Notes: generated by a model not told the origin, from the letters alone. Counted from the first letter of the stretch, positions 36,924 through 49,095 are shown. The stretch: 64,000 bases of DNA from Sphingobacteriales bacterium (GCA_021297855.1 JAJTHM010000055.1:4216-68215), one strand, 5' to 3'. Program-made: numbers and translations.

Positions 36924-38018
36924 TCAATTTTCTTTTAAAAACATTTTTGAATCCTTTATACTACCATTGATCTTGAGTGTATAGATATAATATCCTGGTG
37001 ACAAGTTACTACCATTATACTCAGTACTGCCTATACCAGTGCCATCGTTTAATACAATAGTAGACTGAAGCGTCCCCATTATATTGCGCACCTCAATTGT
37101 TGCAGAAGTAACAGGTGTGCTTTCATCTATAAAATAGGTGATTGTAGTAGTGCCATCAAAGGGATTGGGATTATTTTGAAATAATCTAGATCTTGACTGC
37201 CCTATAGTGTCAATTGAGCGACCTTGCCAATTGATGATTTCTTGGCGCAGTTGTGCAATTTCAAGTCGTTGGCTGTCTATAATCTTTTGTTGGTCTTGGA
37301 TTCCACGCACAATTATAGGGATAAATTCAATATAATTAACAGCTTCACTATTTCCTATTCCAGATACTAAATTTGGGAACAATCTTGAAATTGCCTGTGC
37401 TGTAAATCCAAAATGTAAACTTGTATCATTATTTGGGTTTAAGCTATATGATTTGCCAGTAACAGAGGAATCGAGTATCGCCGTATCTACATCATAGCCA
37501 CCAATATTGAAGTTTTGTTTATAATTATACTTTAAAGGAACTAATTGTAATAGTTTAGACAATGTGTTTTCAGGTAAATTGGTCATATTTTCCTTTGCAG
37601 CAGAATCAGAATGAGTAAAATAATTACCCCCTATAGCCACTACATTTCCATGAACTTGAAGTTTGAAATTTTGTACCTGATATTGAAACGGCCACGTTCC
37701 AGCAGTTTTCTGAAACCAAGGATTTGCAGGATTGCCTATACTGACGTGTCCATAATCTGAAATATGCAGTTTGAAATTTCCGCTATTAAATGAAGGCCAA
37801 GGTTTCCAAAAATTTAGTCCTGAGGCATAATGCTCTATTCCCCATTGACTTTGATTTGAAGCAGGGCTGCTTGAATTAAACCCAAGACCTAGCCAGCGAT
37901 AGTTTTGATATCCAATCTGAGTACTTCCACCACTAACACGGAATATTCCTTGGGCACTTATATTTAAAGTCATAATACTTAAAATGACCAAAACTATTTT
38001 TATTGATTTTTTTTTCAT
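36924..38018 (-). CDS. Peptidase S74 (intramolecular chaperone) domain protein with T9SS type A C-terminal domain
   Basis: SDSAAKENM, L..L.P..Y, HFGFTAQ...FP.LV and VNYIEFIP...GIQ.QQ coiled coil; CTD LFQNNPNPF...GYYIYTL. Confidence 0.85.
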   Translation of the reverse strand: MKKKSIKIVLVILSIMTLNISAQGIFRVSGGSTQIGYQNYRWLGLGFNSSSPASNQSQWGIEHYASGLNFWKPWPSFNSGNFKLHISDYGHVSIGNPANPWFQKTAGTWPFQYQVQNFKLQVHGNVVAIGGNYFTHSDSAAKENMTNLPENTLSKLLQLVPLKYNYKQNFNIGGYDVDTAILDSSVTGKSYSLNPNNDTSLHFGFTAQAISRLFPNLVSGIGNSEAVNYIEFIPIIVRGIQDQQKIIDSQRLEIAQLRQEIINWQGRSIDTIGQSRSRLFQNNPNPFDGTTTITYFIDESTPVTSATIEVRNIMGTLQSTIVLNDGTGIGSTEYNGSNLSPGYYIYTLKINGSIKDSKMFLKEN

Positions 38019-38190
38019 TTGTCTTTTTATTTAAGTGAATTTCATTTGATTTACTTTGCTCAGGCATTCAAGCCTAAGGCTTGTATTTGAAAACTTTGTT
38101 TTAAAGTACCTCATATCGATCTTGCATCGTATGATTGAATAACTAATGCTCCAAGTCCAAGGTTTAAACGTGAATAAAAAATATAAAGAA

Positions 38191-38339
38191 GGGTGTGGAG
38201 CCTGTTGCTTATTTACTAACGCCGTACTCGGTACTGGAAACCTACAAGGAAATTATTAAACAAGCAAAGGACACACCCAAAGGGTGTGGTCTCTGCCCGT
38301 CTCCTCTCTTCCTTGTTTAAAATTTCCAGTTTTAGTACG
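38191..38339 (-). promoter_or_regulatory. Candidate structured 5' leader RNA with two mutually exclusive folds
   Basis: Nested stems CGTACT/AGTACG, ACTGGAAA/TTTCCAGT, ACAAGGAA/TTCCTTGT and CACACCC/GGGTGTG; an alternative helix pairs 38191-38214 with 38257-38278; minus-strand TATATTTG at 38458-38465. Confidence 0.6.
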
Positions 38340-38519
38340 ATGAGAAGAAATAGCGTGACCGCTTTATATTTTTACGTTTTTTATCTAGGCTGTCATCTGT
38401 ATCATTGTTTTAGTTTTGAATTGATATTTGTTCTAGTACAACATAAATTAGATATGACAAATATACTAAAAGGTGTGTAATATTCTATCAAAAAAGAAAA
38501 AACTTATCATTTTGCCCTC

Positions 38520-38689
38520 CGAGGTGGTTCGTTTAGCTTAGTGCATTAAAGTTTTAGCATAAAAAGCTAAAATCTTATCAAATTTGTCTAAAGATTTATA
38601 CATATAATCTATACGCTTTGGCGATTTTGTCTAAACTTTTAGATAGAATTATTAACGCTTTAGCTTCGGTCGCTAAAACGACCACCTCG
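38520..38689. repeat. 18-bp inverted repeats enclosing CTAAAnnTTTAG-like palindromes at 21-bp spacing
   Basis: CGAGGTGGTTCGTTTAGC (38520-38537) / GCTAAAACGACCACCTCG (38672-38689); units start at 38525, 38546, 38567, 38588, 38609, 38631, 38652 and 38673. Confidence 0.8.
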
Positions 38690-38820
38690 ACACCTAAAGG
38701 CTAGGCACTGCTGCTAGTTTAGCGCATTTTATCACTAAGAATTTTTAACTATAATATTTGAGGAATATCCTACGTTATAGTCTTGATAATAAATTTCATA
38801 ACCACTTAAATTTTTGGACT

Positions 38821-39297
38821 ATGCCATTAAACAATTTAGGTAAGACACACATTACCGCTGCACAGATTACAGACTTTGACAAAGCCTTGGACGATCTCAT
38901 TACCATAGCTACCGCTATCACTCAAAACCTCACGGATGAAGAACGCAGTCGATACGGGAGTATCAATGAAAAGAACAAGCTTCTAGTCAATGGTACGATG
39001 GATTTTCATAAGAATCAGCCCAATCTCGAAAGTCCAGACATTGACTGGACGGAATTTGAAGCAGACTATGCAGATAGACAATTTGCAGATACGAGAGCAG
39101 ATAAGATTCAAAGCTTGTTGCGTCTAATCACAGATTTCAAGATAGTACATGATTATGACAACTACCACGATGCCCTAACAGATTATGACTATACGAAATA
39201 TAAAGCAGGTACCAATACCGCAGGATTTTCAGAAAAACAAAACTATCTCAAACAATTTTTTCCCAATACCGGTAATACTACACCTCCTGTGGAGTAG
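38821..39297 (+). CDS. Hypothetical alpha-helical protein (158 aa)
   Basis: The ATG at 38821 (MPLNNLGKTH) follows an AT-rich initiation region. The sequence (NLTDEERSRYGSINEKNKL, DWTEF, HDYDNY, YKAGT) looks like a recurrent Bacteroidota hypothetical family; this is from memory, not searched. Confidence 0.8.
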   Translation: MPLNNLGKTHITAAQITDFDKALDDLITIATAITQNLTDEERSRYGSINEKNKLLVNGTMDFHKNQPNLESPDIDWTEFEADYADRQFADTRADKIQSLLRLITDFKIVHDYDNYHDALTDYDYTKYKAGTNTAGFSEKQNYLKQFFPNTGNTTPPVE

Positions 39298-39320
39298 CTA
39301 TAATATAAGTTTTTAAGGGT

Positions 39321-39356
39321 TAACAAAGGACTGCTAGAAATGGCAGTCCTTTGTTA
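39321..39356. terminator. Intrinsic terminator after the 158-aa gene
   Basis: TAACAAAGGACTGC...GCAGTCCTTTGTTA 14-bp stem. Confidence 0.75.
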
Positions 39357-39745
39357 CGCATGAAAGCCACTGCTACTCCCTCGTCAACTTCATCAGCTCT
39401 TTACTACCAGATTTATCCACTTTCTACTTTGTCGGTATTATTAACCAGTAACCCATTTAAAATCTGAGTTTTATTGTTGGTAAAAACACCCAAAGGGAGG
39501 AAATATAAGCACTAGCATTTTTAACTTTTATCTTTCTCCTATACTTATCTCTTTTTAATTGTTAGGAGTAATTATTGATTTATTTTAATGGTATTTTGAA
39601 GGTATCAATTTAACGCTTAGCTTTTATCCCAGAAAATTTTTATTCATCTGATTATAATTTGACGAAGAAAAATTTTATGTACATTTGAGCATAGAAATAG
39701 ACGATTAGAAAAAGAAATAATACCCACTGCAAATACCAACTCGCT

Positions 39746-42139
39746 ATGACCCTCTACGAAAAACTCCAACTAGCCTCTAGCGAAGAAGATGTCAAAGACG
39801 CTTATATCAAAGCCATAGGTATCAAGGAGTATCAGAAAAATTTGATAGATATTCAGACCAAGGAAATCTGGTTTGAAGCTAAAGAGGGTGGACGAAACTC
39901 GACCTATGCCATGTTTACCCAGCTAATGCACTATGTACAAGTGGCACTCGACCGAGGGGAATATATACCGCCATTCTTAGCGGTTATCGATACGCAGAAA
40001 GCAGCTATCATGAAAAGTGAGGATGTCATACCCTTTCTAGCTAAAAAGACTATCAAGTGGGGTAAATCGGCGAGTGGCTATACACAAGAAGCCTTAGATG
40101 AAGTCTCGGCTTATATCGGGACGTATTTTGTCAGCTTCAAGATAGAAACCCACGAAGAGGAGTTTATCCATACGATAAAAAATGCTATAGTCAAAGGCGA
40201 TATTATCCGCACCCAAATCACCCCGGACAATCTCAAGCAGGTATTTGATAAATGGGTAGCGATGATAGGGCGAGAGATACGAGACATAGCCGAAGAAGAT
40301 TATGCCTTGCTCTTCTTTGCCGACATCATGAGCGATGGCACGGTATCGACCCATACAGACTTGACTGCCGAGCTGCTGCATCGAAATAATCAACCTGTAT
40401 TTATGCTCAATGGCAAGCTCTACGAACTATCCAACCGAGAAGGCTACCGACAGTTCTGGGCTATCTATCATCGACCGCCTAAGGCTGAATACCGAAATTA
40501 TCTTCTAGAGCGCAGAGATAGTCTGATCCCTATCGACGAGCGCAGCTTCAAAGGGGCGTATTATACCCCACTCGCTGTGGTGGACAAGGCTTATGATAAA
40601 CTGACCGAAACCCTCGGCAAAAACTGGCAGAAAGACTATATCGTCTGGGATATGTGCTGTGGGGTAGGAAACCTCGAAATCAAGCACTCCAACCCTCGCA
40701 ATATATTTATGTCCACCCTCGATAGCGAAGATATCGATGTGATGAAAGCCACCAAAACCTGTGTAGCTGCTACCCGATTTCAGTATGATTATCTCAATGA
40801 TGACATAGCCGACGATGGCTCGATAGATTATACACTGACCAATAAAGTCCCCCAAGCTCTCCGACAAGCTATAGCCGATGGAAAGAAAATACTGGTGCTG
40901 ATCAATCCGCCGTATGCGGAAAGTGGCAGTGGTATAGGTAAAGGGGATAAAAATAAAATAGAAGTAGAACAAACACAAATAAATACTCTAATGAAAACCC
41001 AAGAAATGGGTTATGCAAGTAAAGAATTGTTTGTTCAGTTTTTGGCAAGAATTGCAAAAGAAATACCTTCTGCAACTTTAGCCATGTTTAGTACATTGAA
41101 ATATGTCAATGCTCCAAATTTTGAGAAATTTAGAGGAATTTGGAATGCTAAATATTTAGGTGGATTTGTAGTACATAGTAAAGCATTTGATGGATTAAAA
41201 GGTGATTTTCCTATTGGATTTTTAGTGTGGAAAACAGATCACCGTTCTCAAAAAAAACAACCAATAATTGAAATTATTACTGAAGTTATTGATAAAAATG
41301 CTAAGCCTATTGGAGAAAAAAGTTTTCATAATTTGCCAAATAAAATATTCCTAAATGCATGGATGAAAAAGTCAATGACAAATAATGAACTTGCATTGCC
41401 TTTATCTAATGCTTTAACTATTTCGAAAAATCCAAGAATAAAAATGTCATGTGATAATATGAAAGGATTTTTATTTGCTGGAAATAACGATTTTCAAAAT
41501 TCATTAACAGGCACTTTAATTACATCATCAATATATACAGGTCGAAATGGTGGAGGTGTATATATAGACCAAAAAAACCTTTGGCAGGCTGCAATTGTAT
41601 TCTCCGTTCGAAGATTAATTAAACCTACATGGCTAAATGACCGCGACCAGTTCCTGCAACCTACAGAGCCGCTGACCGAAGAGTTTAAGACTGACTGCCT
41701 GATATGGATGTTATTTAATGGTTCTAACCTCACTGCCTCTGCCAATGACCTCGACTGGAACGATAAAAAATGGTCGATAGTCAATCACTTCATTCCTTTT
41801 ACAGAAGAAGAAGTCGGCGCACCTGATCGGTTTGAGTCAGACTTTATGGTCCAATATCTCCGAGATAAGAAGCTCAGCTCTGAAGCCAAAGCTGTCCTCG
41901 ATGAGGGGCGCAAGTTATGGAGAGCCTACTTCGCCCATACCGATGTACGAGCTATGCGCGATGAGCTGAAACTAAACCGCCCCGATGTAGGCTGGTATCA
42001 AGTCCGCAAGGCACTGGAAGCTCGAAATAAAAGTGGAGATTTTTCTGTAGTCAGTTTTGTAGCATTTAAAACGGCTTATGAAGTCTTGAGTGACAAGCTA
42101 AGACCCATGGTGTATGAATTGGGATTTTTGAGGAAATAG
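39746..42139 (+). CDS. Fused PD-(D/E)xK nuclease / N6-adenine DNA methyltransferase (type IIG-like restriction-modification protein)
   Basis: N-terminal SEEDVK...IDIQTKEIWFEAK; GAYYTP; motif I WDMCCGVGNL; motif IV INPPY; promoter element TACATTTG at 39680-39687. Confidence 0.8.
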   Translation: MTLYEKLQLASSEEDVKDAYIKAIGIKEYQKNLIDIQTKEIWFEAKEGGRNSTYAMFTQLMHYVQVALDRGEYIPPFLAVIDTQKAAIMKSEDVIPFLAKKTIKWGKSASGYTQEALDEVSAYIGTYFVSFKIETHEEEFIHTIKNAIVKGDIIRTQITPDNLKQVFDKWVAMIGREIRDIAEEDYALLFFADIMSDGTVSTHTDLTAELLHRNNQPVFMLNGKLYELSNREGYRQFWAIYHRPPKAEYRNYLLERRDSLIPIDERSFKGAYYTPLAVVDKAYDKLTETLGKNWQKDYIVWDMCCGVGNLEIKHSNPRNIFMSTLDSEDIDVMKATKTCVAATRFQYDYLNDDIADDGSIDYTLTNKVPQALRQAIADGKKILVLINPPYAESGSGIGKGDKNKIEVEQTQINTLMKTQEMGYASKELFVQFLARIAKEIPSATLAMFSTLKYVNAPNFEKFRGIWNAKYLGGFVVHSKAFDGLKGDFPIGFLVWKTDHRSQKKQPIIEIITEVIDKNAKPIGEKSFHNLPNKIFLNAWMKKSMTNNELALPLSNALTISKNPRIKMSCDNMKGFLFAGNNDFQNSLTGTLITSSIYTGRNGGGVYIDQKNLWQAAIVFSVRRLIKPTWLNDRDQFLQPTEPLTEEFKTDCLIWMLFNGSNLTASANDLDWNDKKWSIVNHFIPFTEEEVGAPDRFESDFMVQYLRDKKLSSEAKAVLDEGRKLWRAYFAHTDVRAMRDELKLNRPDVGWYQVRKALEARNKSGDFSVVSFVAFKTAYEVLSDKLRPMVYELGFLRK

Positions 42140-42511
42140 GTTTAGATGTAAGAGGTTAGATATGAGATGTTAGATATTAGAAGTGAGAAATAAGAAATAG
42201 GTATTCAGCTCTTAGTGCGCTTTGTGGGATTCTTTATTCATGTTGAAATGGTTTTATTAAGGAATTCATATTTGCTGCGCAGGAGTGCACTTGGTGGTTA
42301 ATAAAAGGGTGACTTGAGATATGAGATGTAAGATGTTAGATATTAGATGTTAGAGATGAGAAGTGAGAAATTAGAAATAAGAAATAGGTATTCAGCTCTT
42401 AGTGCACTTTGTGGGATTCTTTATTCATGTTGAAATGGTTTTATTAAGGAATTCATATTTGCTGCGCAGGAGTGCACTTGGTGGTTAGAGGTTAGAGATG
42501 AGAAGTGAGAA
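42140..42511 (+). repeat. Heptamer tracts (GTTAGAT/ATTAGAT/ATGAGAA...) interleaved with a 115-bp direct duplication
   Basis: 42186-42300 and 42373-42487 differ at one base (GTGCGC vs GTGCAC); period 187 bp. Confidence 0.9.
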
Positions 42512-42550
42512 AACGAGCTGTATTTGGTAATATAAATGAAAAATTAGGGC

Positions 42551-43717
42551 ATGAAATTAAGTATCGAGAAAAAAATAGAATACCTAGACAAGGTAAGCGC
42601 CTATTACTGTAGTTTAAGTCATAATGTATTCAGTGATTATAAAAATCAAATGGATATAGTGCTGGGGCTAGAAGATGAATACACCTATCTCACCTCTACG
42701 GAAACCTATGAAAATGATATAGAGAATCCTTATCTGCGAATAGAATTGAACGAATGGGATCAGCTCCTAGCAGAAATAGAAATTCAACATCAAGATAAAA
42801 GGCTCTATCCTCATTTTTACCAAGATGCCTCCTTGGATCTCGGGTCTATTGAAGCTAGTTTAGATATCGATGGCACTAAATACAAATTGGACAAATATCA
42901 GCTTCTCAGATATACCAAACTCCAATTGCAGAATTTGACTAGATTTAAAATCATGGATAGCCTGCGACCGCAGAATAAGGAAAATCGAAATAGAGTGAAA
43001 GAAATGTTTAAGGACTACAATGAAAGTCTAGATAAAAAGCTTTCAAACGTCGAAGAGACAGAACTCAATCATAAAAAAGACATTGAATTAGCCGATTTTT
43101 ATCTATCCGTAATTAATAAATTTAAGACCGTAAAACCGCTAGGAGAGATCATAGCTCAGGAGTTCAGACCCTATCAGCCAGACTATAAAAAAGAATATAG
43201 GTATAGTGACCATCCTGTGTGGGATATGCCTTGTATTTTCCGATTAAAACAGGGTCGTATAGATCCTACTATCCAGTATTCTATAGTATATAAAAATGAA
43301 TTCTTATACCAAGGGATAAAGGAGATAGACAATTATCATGACTTTACATTGATATCAGAGTTCAATCATGGTATGCTAGTACCGACCGATAGCTGTCAGA
43401 TATTTTCTATCATAGATCCATCGGTGAGTATTGGGCTTTGGTATATTTTAGGATCCTATTACTATAAAAAAATCGGATATAGAGCTTTTGCTATGAATAC
43501 TCCTTTTTTAGATATTCCTATCCCTATACTCGATGCTATGTATCAGCCATATTTTGCAGATAGCTTGAATCTATATGGATATTATAAAGAAAGGCAAGAA
43601 TCTTATCGTAGATTAGTGGATAACACAAAAGCTATCTATGCTCATCAAGGAGAAAAAGCGGCTAATTATTATATAGAGTTGACATTAAATGAACTAGATG
43701 AAGGTTCTGCTTTTTAG
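42551..43717 (+). CDS. Hypothetical protein (388 aa)
   Basis: Long ORF with an ATG start; no signal peptide and no confident family motif. Confidence 0.75.
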   Translation: MKLSIEKKIEYLDKVSAYYCSLSHNVFSDYKNQMDIVLGLEDEYTYLTSTETYENDIENPYLRIELNEWDQLLAEIEIQHQDKRLYPHFYQDASLDLGSIEASLDIDGTKYKLDKYQLLRYTKLQLQNLTRFKIMDSLRPQNKENRNRVKEMFKDYNESLDKKLSNVEETELNHKKDIELADFYLSVINKFKTVKPLGEIIAQEFRPYQPDYKKEYRYSDHPVWDMPCIFRLKQGRIDPTIQYSIVYKNEFLYQGIKEIDNYHDFTLISEFNHGMLVPTDSCQIFSIIDPSVSIGLWYILGSYYYKKIGYRAFAMNTPFLDIPIPILDAMYQPYFADSLNLYGYYKERQESYRRLVDNTKAIYAHQGEKAANYYIELTLNELDEGSAF

Positions 43718-43736
43718 AAATTAGGGATGTATAGAT

Positions 43737-43806
43737 GATAGATATTAGACGTTAGAAGTTAGATCATAGATACTAGATGTTGGATATTAGATGCTAGAGA
43801 TGAGAG
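43737..43806 (+). repeat. Degenerate heptamer tandem repeat (nnTAGAn, about 10 units)
   Basis: GATAGAT ATTAGAC GTTAGAA GTTAGAT CATAGAT ACTAGAT GTTGGAT ATTAGAT GCTAGAG ATGAGAG. Confidence 0.85.
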
Positions 43807-43877
43807 GGGTAATTTTAAAAGGAAAATATGAGTGTATTTTGTGAAGTTTTATCAATAAAAAATGATGCGAGTAAACT

Positions 43878-45794
43878 ATGATTAAAAAATGGTTTGACAA
43901 ATTATTGGGTAAATACGAAGATCTGAATCTAGATACTGATAAAGATAGGCTAGCAGACACATTTGACCAGCTGGCTAGGTATAAAGCCGAGGACAGAGCG
44001 ATAGGATTTAAAATAATAGAATCTCGCCAATCAGGATTCATCGTCAAGGTTGAGGGACTATACGCTTTTGTAGCTTATCTTAAAATGCCATGGTTCTATG
44101 CTGATATTAAAAAATGGCATACTATAGCACCCTATATGATCGATTGTAAAATGGGGGGTAAGATACAGCGTATGTCCTATGAGGACAATCTTTATGTGAC
44201 CATCGATGCTTCAGATACTGTACTGAAAACTGCTACATTTCAAATCCATAAGGCTTATCGATGTATCGTATTATGGAAGAATAATCAAAGTGTGCTAGTA
44301 GAGTTAGGGCAAAATTTTGACTGGAAATGTGGGTCAATCGAAGCCGAGGTCAAAAAGTCATCATTTTACTTTCTAGAAGAATTTAAAGACTTGAATATCG
44401 GAGATTCATTTGTCACTTTTTTCCACGGATTCGAAACCGAAGGTAAAATGATATTTGGACACCAATGGGTGGACAAAGAATTAGAAAATGGAGAATTAGA
44501 AAAACTAATAGGTAGTGTACAACCTATCACGATACACAAGGAATCGCGCCATAAATATACCTATTGGTATAGAGGACAGTATCAGTGCCAACTCAGTATT
44601 ACAGAAGATATTTATGGCGATAGTTATCCGCTGGATATTCTAGAACAATATTTAAATAATTTGGCAGATAATAGTACAATCTTATGCGAGTTTATAGCTA
44701 TAGGAAAGCTGAAATATAAAATAAAGCTAAAACTAGCCGACCAACTTTGCCAAGCAATTTATGATATTCATATTCAGAAAAATAAGAAACAAATTGTAGA
44801 GATCGCAGACAAGCTGAACTCAAAATCGAAACCTGCACCTAAACCAATAGTAGTAAATCGCAAGGATGAAAAAGTGCAATATCTCCATACGATACAAGAA
44901 TTTACAGTAAAAATAGATGAAAATGGAGTCAAGACCTACTGGTTAGACGATAACTATAATGGCATTCCCCATTTAATGTTCAAAGAAATAAAATCAGATC
45001 AACCACTCAAAAAAAAATTGCGAAAACTAATCAATCTAGCAGTGAACGGGGATAAGTTATGGTTTTATATTTCGGATAAATTAGGTAAGAAAAACATACT
45101 TTATATACAGCAAACCATAGAATCAGCCAATAAGAATTTAACCGATTGGCCTATAAACAAAGAAAAAAATAAGGTAGAGATAAAAAAGGCCATCGTATCT
45201 GACAGGATAAGCGAATCGATGGCTGATGAACTAGATTCTATAATGGATACAGAGCAGGATATCGCTATTAGATATGATGCCGATGGTAAACGAAGGTATT
45301 GGTTTCAGAACTATGAGTGCAAGAAAATACGTTTTTTTGAAAACTATCTCGAAAATGTAAAATATATTAATCCTGTCAAGCGCTATTTACAAGGCCTGAG
45401 CGATTGTTCGACCATTCGGTGTGTGATTACCGGTATAGATACTCGGAAAAATAAACTGCATATCAAACTGAGTAATATGTATAAAGAAGCGCCTCATCAA
45501 TCCATGATTTTAGATACTGAAAAGGAACGATTTATAGGCAAAGAGGAACTAATTGATATTCGTTATGAAAATAATCTGCCTATATTCTATCTCAAGAATC
45601 AATGGAAGTGTCGGTTTCCTCGATCTTATAGCGCAGTACCCAATAATAAAGGAAAGATAATGAAGTATATAGAACTAAATAATCCTTTCTGGATGACTTG
45701 TATCATTACAGGGCGCGATCGCCATTCGGAAGAGTATATATTAGAATTGACCAAAGAGCAGCAGGAGGAGATAATCAAGTCTATAATTGAGTGA
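43878..45794 (+). CDS. Protein with an S1/OB-fold-like N-terminal domain and degenerate internal repeats
   Basis: GFKIIESRQSGFIVKVEGLYAFV resembles an S1 domain; four later repeated modules. Confidence 0.55.
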   Translation: MIKKWFDKLLGKYEDLNLDTDKDRLADTFDQLARYKAEDRAIGFKIIESRQSGFIVKVEGLYAFVAYLKMPWFYADIKKWHTIAPYMIDCKMGGKIQRMSYEDNLYVTIDASDTVLKTATFQIHKAYRCIVLWKNNQSVLVELGQNFDWKCGSIEAEVKKSSFYFLEEFKDLNIGDSFVTFFHGFETEGKMIFGHQWVDKELENGELEKLIGSVQPITIHKESRHKYTYWYRGQYQCQLSITEDIYGDSYPLDILEQYLNNLADNSTILCEFIAIGKLKYKIKLKLADQLCQAIYDIHIQKNKKQIVEIADKLNSKSKPAPKPIVVNRKDEKVQYLHTIQEFTVKIDENGVKTYWLDDNYNGIPHLMFKEIKSDQPLKKKLRKLINLAVNGDKLWFYISDKLGKKNILYIQQTIESANKNLTDWPINKEKNKVEIKKAIVSDRISESMADELDSIMDTEQDIAIRYDADGKRRYWFQNYECKKIRFFENYLENVKYINPVKRYLQGLSDCSTIRCVITGIDTRKNKLHIKLSNMYKEAPHQSMILDTEKERFIGKEELIDIRYENNLPIFYLKNQWKCRFPRSYSAVPNNKGKIMKYIELNNPFWMTCIITGRDRHSEEYILELTKEQQEEIIKSIIE

Positions 45795-45813
45795 TAGCAA
45801 CGCAAAAAATCTC

Positions 45814-48177
45814 CTAAAAATATACATACGTCACCCCTTCCCCGCCATTTTCTGGCAAAGCCGCTTCGTATTTGGTCACACTCTTATATTGGCGCAATTG
45901 GTTAATTATCTCCGTTCGAAGTTTCCCTTTGCCATGAATGATCTTGATTTCATGGAAATTATTGAGTAAAGCCCTATTAATAAAATCATCGAGTTCAGCT
46001 ATACCCTCATACGTAAATTTTCCTCTTATATCCAACTCGCGCGAGCTGGATCTATCTATTGCAATTAATCGCTTAGTTACTGCCTTTTTCTTATTTTCCT
46101 CAGGCGGCAGAAGAATCAATTCAGAAGCAGAAATAGTAGATTTCATATTATCAAAAATAACTGTCACCTTATCCTTATTCATTTTTTCAATAATACCTAT
46201 GGCATTCGTTTGTATAAATTGAACTCGATTCCCTATAGATAGTTTTTGATTAGGATCTACTTGATGAATTTGTTTGAAAAGTTCTTTAGATGTTTTAGCA
46301 GATTCTACTTTTTCTTCATTCAGCAGTTCCTGCTCATGAGCTAACTCTTCCAACTTCTTCTTGTTCTTTAACCCGTCTTTGAATAGTTTCAATTCTTTCT
46401 CCTTTTCCGCGATTTGTTCTTGAAGCAAAAGTGTTTTTTCATAGCGCATTTTTTTTCGCATAAGATCCATATCCAGATGGAGTCTATTCCAATCTTTCAA
46501 TTGCTTTTTCAACTCCATTTCAGATTTTTCCAATTCCTTTTTCTGCAGATGTAAATCTTTTTCCTTCTTTTCCAATTTGAATAATTGTCTATCGTATTTC
46601 ACCTTTTCGCTTTCGCTTAAGGCTTCCGCTCGCTTAATCACTTCTGCATTTAAACCCATCTTGCGCGCGATATGAAACGTGTATGAGCTGCCAGGAAATC
46701 CTACGGATAATTTAAACAAAGGTTCTAATTTAGTCTCATCGAAAAGCATACTGGCGCTAAACGTATCTTTTCTCGATTCAGAAAACTTCTTTAAATCACT
46801 ATAATGTGTAGTAGCTATGATAATAGACTTGTGGCTTAAAATTTTCTCTAATACAGATTGTGCCATAGCAGCACCAAAGGAAGGATCTGTGCCATCTCCA
46901 AGCTCATCGAAGAGAAACAATGAGTCTTGATTCGCGCACTTCATCATATGATTCCATAATCTCAATTTAGAAGAATAAGTACTTAACTCATCTTCTATCG
47001 ACTGTAAATCCCCTAAATCTCCAATGATATCCGCAAAAAGGGGGACAACAGAGTTTCCTTCGGCTGGGATAGGGATAGCCTTCTTAGTCATGAGGCCAAG
47101 AAGGCCTAAGGTCTTTAATGTAACCGTTTTTCCTCCTGCATTCGGCCCACTAATTACGAGTAGATGATAACCTTCCTCAAAAGTTAGATGGAAGGGGACA
47201 ACTGATGTATGGTCTTTCTTTGTCTTTAATTTCAATAATGGGTGAAAGGCATTTTTTAAATTAAACTTATTGCCTATTTTTGGGATACTCCCATCGATCT
47301 TAGCCATGAATCTAACGAGGGCTTGAATAGAATCCCATTCTGCCATGTACTCTTGGTATTGAAATATTAGATTCTTATATTTAGCCAGAAAGGCCGTGAG
47401 TTGCATTAGAATTTTTCGAATCTCTCTATCTTCTTCACGCTCCAATTCTGAGGCTTCATTATTCAGATAAATAGTTTCAGCTGGCTCCATATAGACTACA
47501 TTTCCAGATTCTGATTCATCGAGAATAATCCCTTTTATAGATCGCTTAAAGGCAGACTGCAATGCTAGTACTCTTCGGCTCTGTCTCAAAGATTCTTGAA
47601 TCTCGTGAAGATGTCCCGATTGTTTTGCTGCATTTAGAGCTCGAGAAAATGCATTATCAATTTCAGATTGAATAGATTTTTTCCTGTCACGGATTTGAGC
47701 TAACTCTTTGCTTGCAGAAGATTTTACCTTTCCATTTTCATCTATAACGCGCTCGATTTCTCGAAGCAATGCTGTATCATAAAACAAAACACCCGCCTTA
47801 TGCATAAGCATTTCCAACTCATTCTGATTGGTAGTCTCTTTAAAAAATGTTTTGATATCTCTCACATTTGAAACGAGTAAACCGAGATTGAATATATCCT
47901 CGACAGGTACCACATAATTTTCAATATCTAATTTATTCAAATGAAAATTGAACTCAAATATATGCTGTATAGTAAAATCAGGAAATTGCGTTTTCAAAAA
48001 ACGATATTCTGAAAGATAGATATATACCTTCTCAATTTCAGACCTCTTTAACTCTTTATCAATAAAATTTTTCTTATAAAATTCTATACCATATTCAGAC
48101 AAAAAGCATCGATAGACTTCATTTAAAACCAAGTCAAATTCAAGTAGTTTTTCTGTTTGTTCTTTATAGTTAATCAT
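45814..48177 (-). CDS. mutS2: MutS2 family protein (ATPase + Smr domain)
   Basis: LEFD N-terminus, ISGPNAGGKT, LSTYSS, DELGDGTDP, ATTHY; Smr ELDIRG...IIHGKG. Confidence 0.93.
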   Translation of the reverse strand: MINYKEQTEKLLEFDLVLNEVYRCFLSEYGIEFYKKNFIDKELKRSEIEKVYIYLSEYRFLKTQFPDFTIQHIFEFNFHLNKLDIENYVVPVEDIFNLGLLVSNVRDIKTFFKETTNQNELEMLMHKAGVLFYDTALLREIERVIDENGKVKSSASKELAQIRDRKKSIQSEIDNAFSRALNAAKQSGHLHEIQESLRQSRRVLALQSAFKRSIKGIILDESESGNVVYMEPAETIYLNNEASELEREEDREIRKILMQLTAFLAKYKNLIFQYQEYMAEWDSIQALVRFMAKIDGSIPKIGNKFNLKNAFHPLLKLKTKKDHTSVVPFHLTFEEGYHLLVISGPNAGGKTVTLKTLGLLGLMTKKAIPIPAEGNSVVPLFADIIGDLGDLQSIEDELSTYSSKLRLWNHMMKCANQDSLFLFDELGDGTDPSFGAAMAQSVLEKILSHKSIIIATTHYSDLKKFSESRKDTFSASMLFDETKLEPLFKLSVGFPGSSYTFHIARKMGLNAEVIKRAEALSESEKVKYDRQLFKLEKKEKDLHLQKKELEKSEMELKKQLKDWNRLHLDMDLMRKKMRYEKTLLLQEQIAEKEKELKLFKDGLKNKKKLEELAHEQELLNEEKVESAKTSKELFKQIHQVDPNQKLSIGNRVQFIQTNAIGIIEKMNKDKVTVIFDNMKSTISASELILLPPEENKKKAVTKRLIAIDRSSSRELDIRGKFTYEGIAELDDFINRALLNNFHEIKIIHGKGKLRTEIINQLRQYKSVTKYEAALPENGGEGVTYVYF

Positions 48178-48183
48178 GGTGAA

Positions 48184-49095
48184 TTATTCCTTCTTGTATA
48201 GTGGATGATAGAGTTCTATTGTTTTCCTCAAAAATTGGTTATCTAAATGAGTATATATCTCTGTAGTGGTTATGGATACATGGCCGAGCATTTCCTGGAC
48301 AGCGCGCAAATCAGCTCCCCCTTCCACTAAATGCGTAGCAAAAGAATGACGGAAAGTATGTGGGGAAATATTTTTTCGCAATCCGATGAGACTCGCTTGT
48401 TTTTTTATCATATTGAAAACAGAAATTCGCGACAAAGGAGTCCCTTTCAGATTTAGGAAAACAAAATCTTTATGTTCTTCAGCTACCGATTTCTTCTTTC
48501 TATAGTTATCTAAATATATTTTTAAATACTTGATAGCATCTGACCCTATAGGCACTATGCGCTCTTTATTGCCTTTGCCGATGACTTTCACGATTTCTAC
48601 ATCCAATTGAATCTCGGATAGTTTTAAATTCAAAAGTTCAGTAATTCTCAGTCCACAGCTATATAGAACCTCTAGGATAGCCCTATCCCGAGTACCACCT
48701 TCTGTGCTCACATCAATAGATTCCAACAATTTTTCAATCTCTTCAAAACTTAAAGTATCTGGTAGTTTTCTTATCAATTTTGGAGCATCTATCAATTCGG
48801 CAGCATTTTGATTCGTATAATTTTGATAGACTAAAAAATTGAAAAAAGTTTTCAATCCAGATAAAATTCTAGCTTGCGTGGACTCTTGTATGGAAAAGTT
48901 ATCAATAAGATATGCAAAAAAATCCTCAATATTATTTCTACTAAGGTTTAAAACTGTCAGCTTTGGATTTTGAAAATCACAGAAGACATGTAATTTTTGA
49001 ATGTCGTTGAGATAAGCGTCAATAGTATGCCTGGAAGCATTCTTCTCAAGTTTTAGAAAATTTTTGAACTCCAAAATTAAAAAATTCCAATCCAT
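48184..49095 (-). CDS. xerD: Site-specific tyrosine recombinase XerD
   Basis: RDRAILEVLYSCGLRITEL, GKGNKER, HTFRHSFATHL, MLGHVSITTTEIY. Confidence 0.88.
   Translation of the reverse strand: MDWNFLILEFKNFLKLEKNASRHTIDAYLNDIQKLHVFCDFQNPKLTVLNLSRNNIEDFFAYLIDNFSIQESTQARILSGLKTFFNFLVYQNYTNQNAAELIDAPKLIRKLPDTLSFEEIEKLLESIDVSTEGGTRDRAILEVLYSCGLRITELLNLKLSEIQLDVEIVKVIGKGNKERIVPIGSDAIKYLKIYLDNYRKKKSVAEEHKDFVFLNLKGTPLSRISVFNMIKKQASLIGLRKNISPHTFRHSFATHLVEGGADLRAVQEMLGHVSITTTEIYTHLDNQFLRKTIELYHPLYKKE

Follow-up and report, generated by a model that had tools for sequence, protein, structure and literature searches.

What does a short array of phased palindromes do beside the gene of a small helical protein from an unnamed family? 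The question is raised by a locus in a 64,000-nucleotide stretch of a Sphingobacteriales bacterium genome (GCA_021297855.1), hereafter the window; G000 denotes the genome of the window and G001 that of a sister species. A sequence-only reading of the window had proposed that array and gene make up an undescribed module, and had offered three explanations of the array: a phased binding array for a protein, a hairpin RNA partner, or an invertible or MITE-like element. We compared the locus with its copies and homologues in other Bacteroidota, and weighed these and other explanations.

Anatomy of the array and its gene

The features of the locus, in window coordinates, are as follows.

38480..45803, no strand: variable island holding the cassette and genes for a 797-aa MTase-like protein and for proteins of 388 aa and 638 aa
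38510..38703, no strand: degenerate phased array of about eight cores in a 21/22-bp register, with the conserved left edge of the unit; non-coding
38520..38537, plus strand: left arm, an inverted outer unit of the array (…GGTGGTTCGTTTAGC), invariant in all four copies
38546..38663: inner cores of the TAAA-NN-TTTA type, starting at 38546, 38567, 38588, about 38610, 38631 and 38652
38672..38689, plus strand: right arm (GCTAAAACGACCACCTCG), the inverted-repeat match, kept across copies
38704..38820, plus strand: putative promoter and leader, with TATAAT/ATATTTG at about 38750-38759
38821..39297, plus strand: gene for an acidic, all-helical protein of 158 aa that belongs to an unnamed Bacteroidota family (from translation, AF2 model and homologues)
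39318..39355, plus strand: terminator hairpin (about 39325-39350) and right edge of the conserved unit, where homology ends

Five 12-bp palindromes with 21-bp phasing and one slip had been described. They start at 38546, 38567, 38588, 38631 and 38652, and the resulting steps of 21, 21, 43 and 21 bear the description out, with a sixth, degenerate and decayed core at about 38610 inside the longest step. Half-units are also found inside the arms (CGTTTAGC at 38530 and GCTAAAACG at 38672), so that the register spans about 38525-38684 and has eight positions in one 21/22-bp register. The arms had been called near-perfect 18-bp inverted repeats; they are indeed present, but the adjective was generous, since complementarity read from the sequence is 15/18 ungapped and 17/18 with a single 1-nt indel. 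As the arms are inverted copies of the array unit, the supposed terminal inverted repeat consists of outer units and is not a transposon end. Self-complementarity of each core in the window is only 4-5/6; the cores retain the inner TAAA..TTTA and have lost most outer bases. In G001, one copy still reads ACCTAAACTTTTAGGT. The window copy is thus a decayed version of the array, closed at both ends by two inverted outer units.

We found no ORF of at least 30 aa in any frame over 38481-38757, in agreement with the earlier description of the array as non-coding; a heptad-repeat coding sequence was rejected on the same ground, no such ORF running through the window array. Taken on its own, the array is statistically weak. 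TRF reported no repeat in it, its lag-21/22 autocorrelation gave z = 2.6, and in a palindrome-chain test on the window alone an equally long phased chain arose by chance in 422 of 5000 simulated sequences, which is not significant. Its strength comes from the comparison with other genomes.

Copies of the cassette and its genomic context

The segment 38510-39355, which comprises array, leader, gene and terminator, matches G001:C27:1379-2225 with 83% identity over 850 columns. Homology to this G001 cassette stops at both ends, and its genomic context differs from that of the window; the left limit of homology is 38510 for G001:C27, C27b and C8. Three copies occur in G001, two of them with the array only and truncated on the gene side; in one of these gene-less copies the break coincides with the start of a repeated sequence and of an rve-type transposase gene. 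The array is not scattered through G000 independently of the gene, an outcome that would have told against the sequence-only reading: the 191-nt element is present there as a single copy (blastn against the whole genome), and its arms match nothing else. Across the four copies, invariant columns make up 82/98 of the cores and 43/72 of the linkers (Fisher p = 7e-4, indicative only because the four copies are related).

The conserved unit leaves no space for a promoter to the left of the array. At its other end, the stem and the T-run of the terminator are both kept in G001, which, with the all-helical model of the protein (see below), upholds the earlier description of a stand-alone helical gene with its own terminator; a simple terminator scan did not flag the hairpin at about 39325-39350.

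On a larger scale, the cassette opens a variable island of 7.3 kb (about 38480-45803), with the array at the left edge. Conservation of the left flank reaches about 38470 in G001:C13, a locus without the island, and homology on the MutS2 side ends at 45804-45818 in G011, G001, G003 and G009. In relatives the T9SS-type gene on the flank is retained together with its leader, as is MutS2, while the island and the junction are absent. Within the island, the translation of the downstream 797-aa gene has an NPPY motif and weak PADLOC matches to MTase_II, with no Pfam match. We tentatively propose, jointly with the docking-array reading given below, that the array and the 158-aa gene beside it are passed on as a single cassette of array, promoter, gene and terminator.

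Arrays beside homologues across Bacteroidota

We surveyed homologues of the gene at 80 loci, with one genome per species; culturable carriers among them include Flavobacterium jejuense EC11, Chryseobacterium edaphi PBS4-4 and Limnovirga soli KCS-6. A scan for exact 12-bp palindromes was too strict and autocorrelation was used instead: an array was called when the lag-21/22 signal reached z >=4 with a count of at least 8, within 500 nt of the gene. Two loci with less than 500 nt upstream (L030 and L041) were left out of these counts (n = 78), and 554 control windows were placed 2-4 kb away. A 21/22-bp periodic array was found on either side of the gene at 62/78 homologue loci, against 12/554 controls, and the module of phased array and small helical protein proposed from the window alone is therefore seen well beyond it. 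The signal was upstream in 24/78 loci and downstream in 39 of the 76 with a full downstream window; 10/78 loci (rows of the protein tree) had no array. TRF on all 80 loci placed repeats upstream in 27, downstream in 28 and overlapping the gene in one, and reported none in 24. The median gap between array and gene is 161 nt for upstream arrays and 128 nt for downstream ones, and the latter sit behind an intrinsic terminator in the loci inspected.

The position of the array follows the protein tree. In a quick ML tree of 78 proteins, arrays are upstream in 22+2 of the 36 members of one clade and downstream in 29+3 of the 42 members of the other, and none of 500 label shuffles was equally clustered. 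Distant paralogs with 25-29% identity (G000:C118, G001:C19 and G001:C4) also have downstream arrays, with z of 3.2, 6.4 and 8.6, respectively. The 75%-identical paralogs of G000 have different upstream arrays, built from GGTAAAATTTTACC and GTGGTCGTTTTACC units; the GTGGTCGTTTTACC units, which are related to the left arm, repeat directly upstream of the C91 paralog. Arms of the CGAGGTGG type are confined to the G000/G001 subfamily, and the expectation that inverted repeats of this type would flank homologues across the family was not borne out. Among 30 arrays of at least 90 nt, 20 have no open frame among the six and the other 10 have one or more; no relative was found to carry the array as an intact heptad-repeat ORF.

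No other neighbour is conserved: besides the family gene, any shared gene occurs at no more than 5/80 loci. Genes for restriction-modification, nucleases, toxins and transposases abound around the loci, as judged by N-terminal sequences and Pfam, and the cassettes stand alone, with housekeeping genes on either side. Further 21/22-bp arrays are present elsewhere in G000, and the G000 arrays beside other gene families are built from unrelated direct-repeat units. Judged by these genome comparisons, array and gene are a recurring unit, present in many sequence versions across Bacteroidota.

The repeat unit and its constraints

We averaged 254 units from 32 arrays with at least five chained dyads, after dropping L057 (masked or low-complexity cells). 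The averaged unit is r-A-C-S-T-A-A-A-A / T-T-T-T-A-S-G-T-y (consensus ACSTAAAA/TTTTASGT), which recurs at intervals of 21-22 bp; the median number per array is 7 (range 5-22). The outer ACS/SGT is common to nearly all arrays, while the inner 8-10 bases are locus-specific (TAAAATTTTA, CAACCGGTTG, TAATGCATTA, GTGTCCCGACAC and TATTCAGATA). A super-period of 42-44 or 63-65 bp is common.

A palindromic unit may be read as a DNA site or as an RNA stem. An RNA stem on a fixed strand is expected to favour G·U and to avoid other mismatches. Mirrored positions in 33 arrays gave 1537 Watson-Crick pairs, 103 G·T, 97 A·C (binomial p = 0.72) and 335 other combinations, 40 of the latter coming from L057; the lack of a G·U bias favours double-stranded DNA sites and disfavours RNA stems. 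At position 6, either half of the unit has C or G whatever the other half has, with 52% pairing, a pattern that indicates half-site degeneracy and not pairing. The constraints on the array, as far as they can be read from aligned units, thus argue for a DNA-like rather than an RNA-like element.

A family of small acidic helical proteins

The AF2 model of the 158-aa protein is all-helical (pLDDT 85.7), with a 54-residue helix at 76-129. The most conserved motif of the family is R-[YF]-G-S-[IV]-N-E-x-N-K, where the predicted secondary structure (helix at 39-44, G46-S47, helix at 50-65) resembles a helix-turn-helix. A word-seeded search gave 287 relatives, all of them unnamed, and an exhaustive HMM search gave 462 clusters at 50% identity. 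Members are single-domain proteins of about 160 aa; longer or fused forms were not seen in the search, which is weak evidence of their absence. The family is present in 13/400 other sampled Bacteroidota genomes, often with 2-4 copies each, and is acidic, with a median pI of 5.2 and a median net charge of -5 (n = 77 members). Contigs from RNA libraries of three freshwater metatranscriptome studies cover 38828-39265 and start at 38806-38834.

Searches of Pfam, PHROGs, PADLOC and NCBIfam gave no match to the protein, and neither PDB Foldseek nor BFVD gave a fold match to its model. The best Z of the VIA wide fold search was 5.3, within noise for helical models, the best E-value of a profile search against PDB sequences was 0.068, and ESM Atlas matches were only to unnamed Bacteroidota clusters. 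No recognisable DNA-binding domain or fold (HTH or RHH) was detected by these family and fold searches. When 72,556 plasmid records and 50,697 phage records were searched with the family by tblastn, neither set gave a match.

Which protein may bind the array

The comparisons show the array, its conservation, its link to the gene family and constraints typical of DNA; that a protein binds it is our inference, and we also propose which protein this may be and what the complex may do. Our tentative reading, to which we give somewhat less than an even chance, is that the element is a double-stranded-DNA docking array for a DNA-binding protein, coupled to the gene family, with the family's own product as the likeliest binder. 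Among the three explanations offered by the sequence-only reading, the phased protein-binding array is the one that fits best. The dyad-symmetric sites lie two helical turns apart, and dimers bound to them would align on one face of the helix. The 158-aa product is a candidate binder of its own array: the helix-turn-helix-like segment at the conserved motif would read the invariant outer ACS/SGT bases, and the 54-residue helix would supply dimer or higher-order contacts. An upstream array, which in the window precedes the presumed promoter by about 60-240 bp, would in addition serve the gene's autoregulation, whereas a downstream array would be a site of action only, as in plasmid centromeres.

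Four observations speak for binding by the family's own product. The ACS-N10-SGT unit type tracks the 158-aa family, the coupling to arrays survives deep divergence of the protein, the upstream-or-downstream placement mirrors that of genes for centromere-binding proteins, and the most conserved motif falls on the helix-turn-helix-like segment. Against it, the family is acidic and has no recognised DNA-binding fold, and proteins with near-identical N-termini and motifs are found with different inner cores (CAACC/GGTTG at L034 and L037, TAAAA/TTTTA at L031, L039 and L040). The putative reading residues of L084 and L090 are likewise near-identical although their inner cores change. The 10 loci lacking an array, the 10 long arrays with an open frame, the weak statistics of the array in the window and the HTH genes described next also count against this reading. 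The pair L068 and L076, with 146/161 identical residues and a common half-site AC[CG]TAT[TC], fits the own product equally well as the binder considered next.

The strongest competing explanation, which we consider unlikely but serious, keeps the docking array and changes the binder: this would be a regulator of about 125 aa with an XRE-type HTH and a coiled coil, acting in cis or in trans, or else a host factor, and the 158-aa protein would be regulated cargo or effector. Proteins of this build are bona fide dimeric DNA binders, and palindromes of 16 bp suit HTH dimers. Genes with HTH_3 plus a coiled coil end directly before arrays at G000:C45, C46 and C50 and at G001:C27b, with the order HTH-coiled-coil gene, array and 158-aa paralog at G000:C45, and the order HTH-coiled-coil gene, array and DUF6261 in G085. 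Such genes also adjoin arrays that have no helical-protein gene, at least 15 paralogs of them are present in G000, and the inner cores vary without any change in the 158-aa protein, which a second binder would accommodate. However, the HTH-coiled-coil gene adjoins the 158-aa gene at only 5-7/80 loci and is missing at no fewer than 73/80, so that matched paralogs acting in trans would be needed. Moreover, a periodic array lies beside only 3-5 of the 15 HTH-coiled-coil genes tested in G000, and the ACS-N10-SGT unit type follows the 158-aa family and not the HTH-coiled-coil gene.

Mobile, RNA-based and plasmid-type explanations

The array could also be a selfish or neutral minisatellite of the kind of BrickBuilt (23-nt repeats) or MITEPgRS/MITE464 (41-nt repeats), with tandem repeats of about two or four helical turns enclosed by inverted ends. 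It would be multiplied by slippage or by a transposase supplied in trans, with no function in its place beside the gene. As described (PMC4596501, PMC2575886), these Porphyromonas gingivalis elements are Bacteroidota MITEs: intergenic arrays of internal tandem repeats with short inverted ends, present in 10-20 dispersed copies per genome, whose IS5-type terminal repeats are shared with resident IS elements. The element of the window has inverted ends as well, two of its three G001 copies lack the gene, other 21/22-bp arrays occur in G000, and units are more alike within an array than between arrays. However, the BrickBuilt and MITEPgRS repeats are direct and non-palindromic and are not described as linked to a gene family, whereas here a single G000 copy goes with one protein family.

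Since the arms are unmatched elsewhere in G000, no resident IS shares them, and a search with an arm 17-mer, in one genome per species, gave 20 matches, none of which was the element. The gene-less G001 copies are truncated on the gene side, the cores are more conserved than the linkers, and the coupling to the gene family is phylum-wide, holds in distant paralogs and has a clade-specific position. No direct repeat that would mark a target-site duplication is evident at 38510 or 39355, which is weak evidence with only two full copies. We regard a functionless minisatellite as improbable.

A MITE proper is disfavoured, as no terminal repeats shared with a resident IS were found and dispersed copies are few (1 in G000 and 3 in G001). 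An invertible switch was rejected because the unit has no recombinase next to it; the XerD-like gene at 48184-49095 belongs to the conserved chromosomal surroundings. The suggestion of a MITE-like or invertible element thus fares poorly, given arms that are array units, their uniqueness in G000 and the truncation of the gene-less copies.

Less probable still is that the array acts as RNA, either as one long imperfect hairpin or as a train of small hairpins partnering the protein, much as a type III antitoxin or the RNA of another RNA-protein module would. The ToxI/ToxN pair likewise has locus-specific repeats adjoining a conserved small gene, the arms could close a 170-nt hairpin, and predicted RNA folding is more stable than in shuffled sequences for the plus strand (z = -4.6) and for the minus strand (z = -3.3); palindromes, however, fold by construction, and these scores carry little weight. 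RNAalifold on the four copies found a compensatory change in 1/48 predicted pairs, with a covariation term of +0.5, weak evidence either way. The even balance of G·T and A·C, the predominance of pair-breaking mismatches, the missing promoter space to the left of the array and the intrinsic terminators before downstream arrays all count against an RNA.

Rfam 15 gave no match on the array and only three sub-threshold, chance-level matches elsewhere in 37900-39900. None of the contigs of four RNA libraries over 38000-39800 spans the array, although contigs cannot prove absence. A ToxIN-like type III toxin-antitoxin system fits poorly, with arrays downstream at 39/76 loci and no RNA-type mismatch bias; no ToxN/AbiQ endoribonuclease chain is among the fold matches to the model, which is all-helical. 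The hairpin RNA put forward earlier is accordingly disfavoured, on the mismatch counts and the terminators alike.

Finally, it is highly improbable that the array is what remains of the iteron origin or partition centromere of an integrated element, a function of plasmid type: the geometry matches (sopC has 16-bp dyads at about 21.5/43 bp, and iterons recur at about 22 bp) and centromeres too lie upstream or downstream of their gene, but there is no Rep, ParA, ParM or ParB gene in the island or at the 80 loci, the protein family is unmatched in plasmid and phage records, and the cassettes stand alone between housekeeping genes. A plasmid partition locus was rejected since the island has no NTPase of the ParA, ParM or TubZ type and the 80 loci have no conserved neighbour, and an iteron-type origin since no neighbouring protein matches a Rep family.

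Comparison with known systems

The docking array that we favour resembles several described protein-DNA systems. With sopC/SopB, the type Ia partition system of plasmid F, it shares tandem 16-bp dyads with a period near 43 bp (2 x 21.5), a position next to, and in some cases downstream of, a small-protein gene, and a locus-specific site sequence; unlike sopC/SopB, the cassette has no ParA/ParB homologue or NTPase, is chromosomal and stands alone, and its binding is a prediction. As in parC/ParR of R1 and pSK41 and in iteron/Rep systems, helically phased repeats may lie directly upstream of the gene and would double as operator, and we take from these systems the working model of a cooperative coating of one DNA face. 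They differ in that no ribbon-helix-helix or Rep family and no motor or replication partner is found here, and in that the units here are palindromic and theirs direct. REP/BIME-2 elements of Proteobacteria also consist of palindromic units in alternating orientation with short linkers; however, REPs are one sequence in hundreds of copies per genome, moved by RAYT transposases, whereas here the sequence is array-specific and the gene partner fixed.

Arrays were also found beside two other families of helical proteins. In G085, 2/3 loci of DUF6261 (PF19775) have an upstream array by eye. As in the present cassette, the array lies beside a small all-helical protein, sometimes after an XRE HTH plus coiled-coil gene; the 158-aa family differs in its base period of 21/22 bp and in having the array downstream in about half of the loci. 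PF19775 has no match in G000 and is present in 1/120 other sampled genomes, and DUF6261 receives passing mentions only in the literature searched. The other family, of 250 aa, has two paralogs in G000 with 29% identity and downstream 21/22-bp arrays. An hhalign comparison of alignment A2 with three DUF6261 proteins gave a probability of 0.1 (the alignment is shallow), and hhalign detected no link among the three helical families (158-aa, DUF6261 and 250-aa). As far as such profile comparisons reach, the 158-aa family and DUF6261 are different protein families, not detectably related.

No published description of the pairing of array and gene was found in the main texts of the literature searched on Bacteroidota repeats, iterons and DUF6261. 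New here are the limits of the unit, its clade-structured coupling to a gene family across the phylum, the consensus, the evidence for DNA over RNA, the links to XRE-type coiled-coil genes, and the second and third array-associated families.

Implications for Bacteroidota

A bolder reading, which we put forward as a speculation with odds clearly against it, is that these loci form a Bacteroidota cassette class: an orphan centromere-like track with a helical protein of novel fold that would polymerise into a DNA-templated filament. The class would comprise at least 2-3 unrelated families (158-aa, DUF6261 and 250-aa), sometimes with an XRE plus coiled-coil partner, and the filament would mark, insulate or tether accessory DNA such as defence islands. 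If true, this would be a chromosome-borne organisation of DNA and protein without a described counterpart.

For genome annotation, the arrays are a hazard, since annotators may take them for CRISPR-like repeats, for MITEs or for spurious ORFs. For the 158-aa family, so far without any annotation, the survey provides a fixed partner in cis, and its function can be tested on a defined target of 150-400 bp. The cassettes are often found in defence and mobilome neighbourhoods. If they are protein-DNA modules, the logic of centromeres, iterons and operator arrays would extend to stand-alone chromosomal cassettes. Taken with the arrays of DUF6261, they suggest that Bacteroidota make general use of dyad arrays phased by two helical turns, a use so far unstudied.

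Periodic arrays elsewhere in the genome

Searching the window's own genome (G000) for arrays of the same periodicity, we found the arrays listed here, with contig and positions.

Periodic arrays in G000 outside the window
L109, C1:28097-28664, long 21/22-bp direct-repeat array with a 43-bp super-period, just 3' of a helical-protein gene
L110, C116:563-1296, long 21/22-bp direct-repeat array with a 43-bp super-period, just 3' of a helical-protein gene
L111, C46:50113-50484, 21-bp periodic array, directly 3' of an HTH_3 + coiled-coil gene (~121 aa)
L112, C50:442-838, 21-bp periodic array, directly 3' of an HTH_3 + coiled-coil gene (~121 aa)
L113, C108:17103-17425, 21-bp periodic array

The helical proteins beside L109 and L110 are paralogous (254 and 247 aa, 29% identical); both contain an internal duplication, and neither had a match in Pfam or NCBIfam. 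The L109 copy adjoins cas2 and a CRISPR array. The arrays on C46 and C50 are without any helical-protein gene, and the array on C108 corresponds in type to part of the C116 array in reverse-complement orientation. Within the window, a weak 21-bp repeat (2282-2493; autocorrelation z = 9.1) with two TTTTACAATTT units lies 5' of the window's HTH_3 gene (2491-2823).

Homologs of the 158-aa gene

In the sister species G001, the ortholog of the 158-aa gene (L019/L010, G001:C27:1690-2162) is split over two reading frames, with an overlap near residue 35; either a frameshift or a sequencing error accounts for the split. In Limnovirga soli (L045), a tandem pair of 158-aa genes is followed by a ~390-bp array built of alternating ACCAAAATTTTACT and ACTAAAATTTTAAC units (18.6 units of 21 bp in all). 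Downstream arrays also accompany family members on contigs assigned outside Bacteroidota, namely in Acidobacteriota MAGs (L084 and L090) and in a MAG labelled Acinetobacter pittii (L108); these assignments could reflect transfer or mis-binning.

One array copy in G001, C27b, is without the 158-aa gene and is cut on the gene side. A 16-nt sequence sits at its cut point, adjoining an rve-family transposase gene, and also occurs in two other loci; over all three loci its positions are L025:10118, L015:2367, and L062:3785 and 7481. This recurring sequence probably marks an insertion-sequence end.

The island and its left flank

To the left of the array, a non-coding region of ~400 nt (38019-38480) lies upstream of a T9SS/Peptidase_S74 gene (36924-38018, minus strand). 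It is 76% identical to G001:C13, with a partial counterpart at two sites of a further relative, G009. Wastewater metatranscriptome contigs span 38178-38382 with zero differences, several of them ending at 38381. An Rfam search returned no family at threshold; the region is a candidate for a long structured leader or for an sRNA.

Three further genes complete the variable island that holds the array and the 158-aa gene.

39746-42139, 797-aa product
42551-43717, 388-aa product
43878-45794, 638-aa product

No family was found for these proteins in Pfam, PHROG or NCBIfam. The 797-aa protein carries an NPPY motif and has weak matches to PADLOC MTase_II, and its homologs again lie 3' of a 158-aa gene in three other loci (L066, L091 and L101). 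The three genes may constitute an uncharacterised restriction-modification or defence system.
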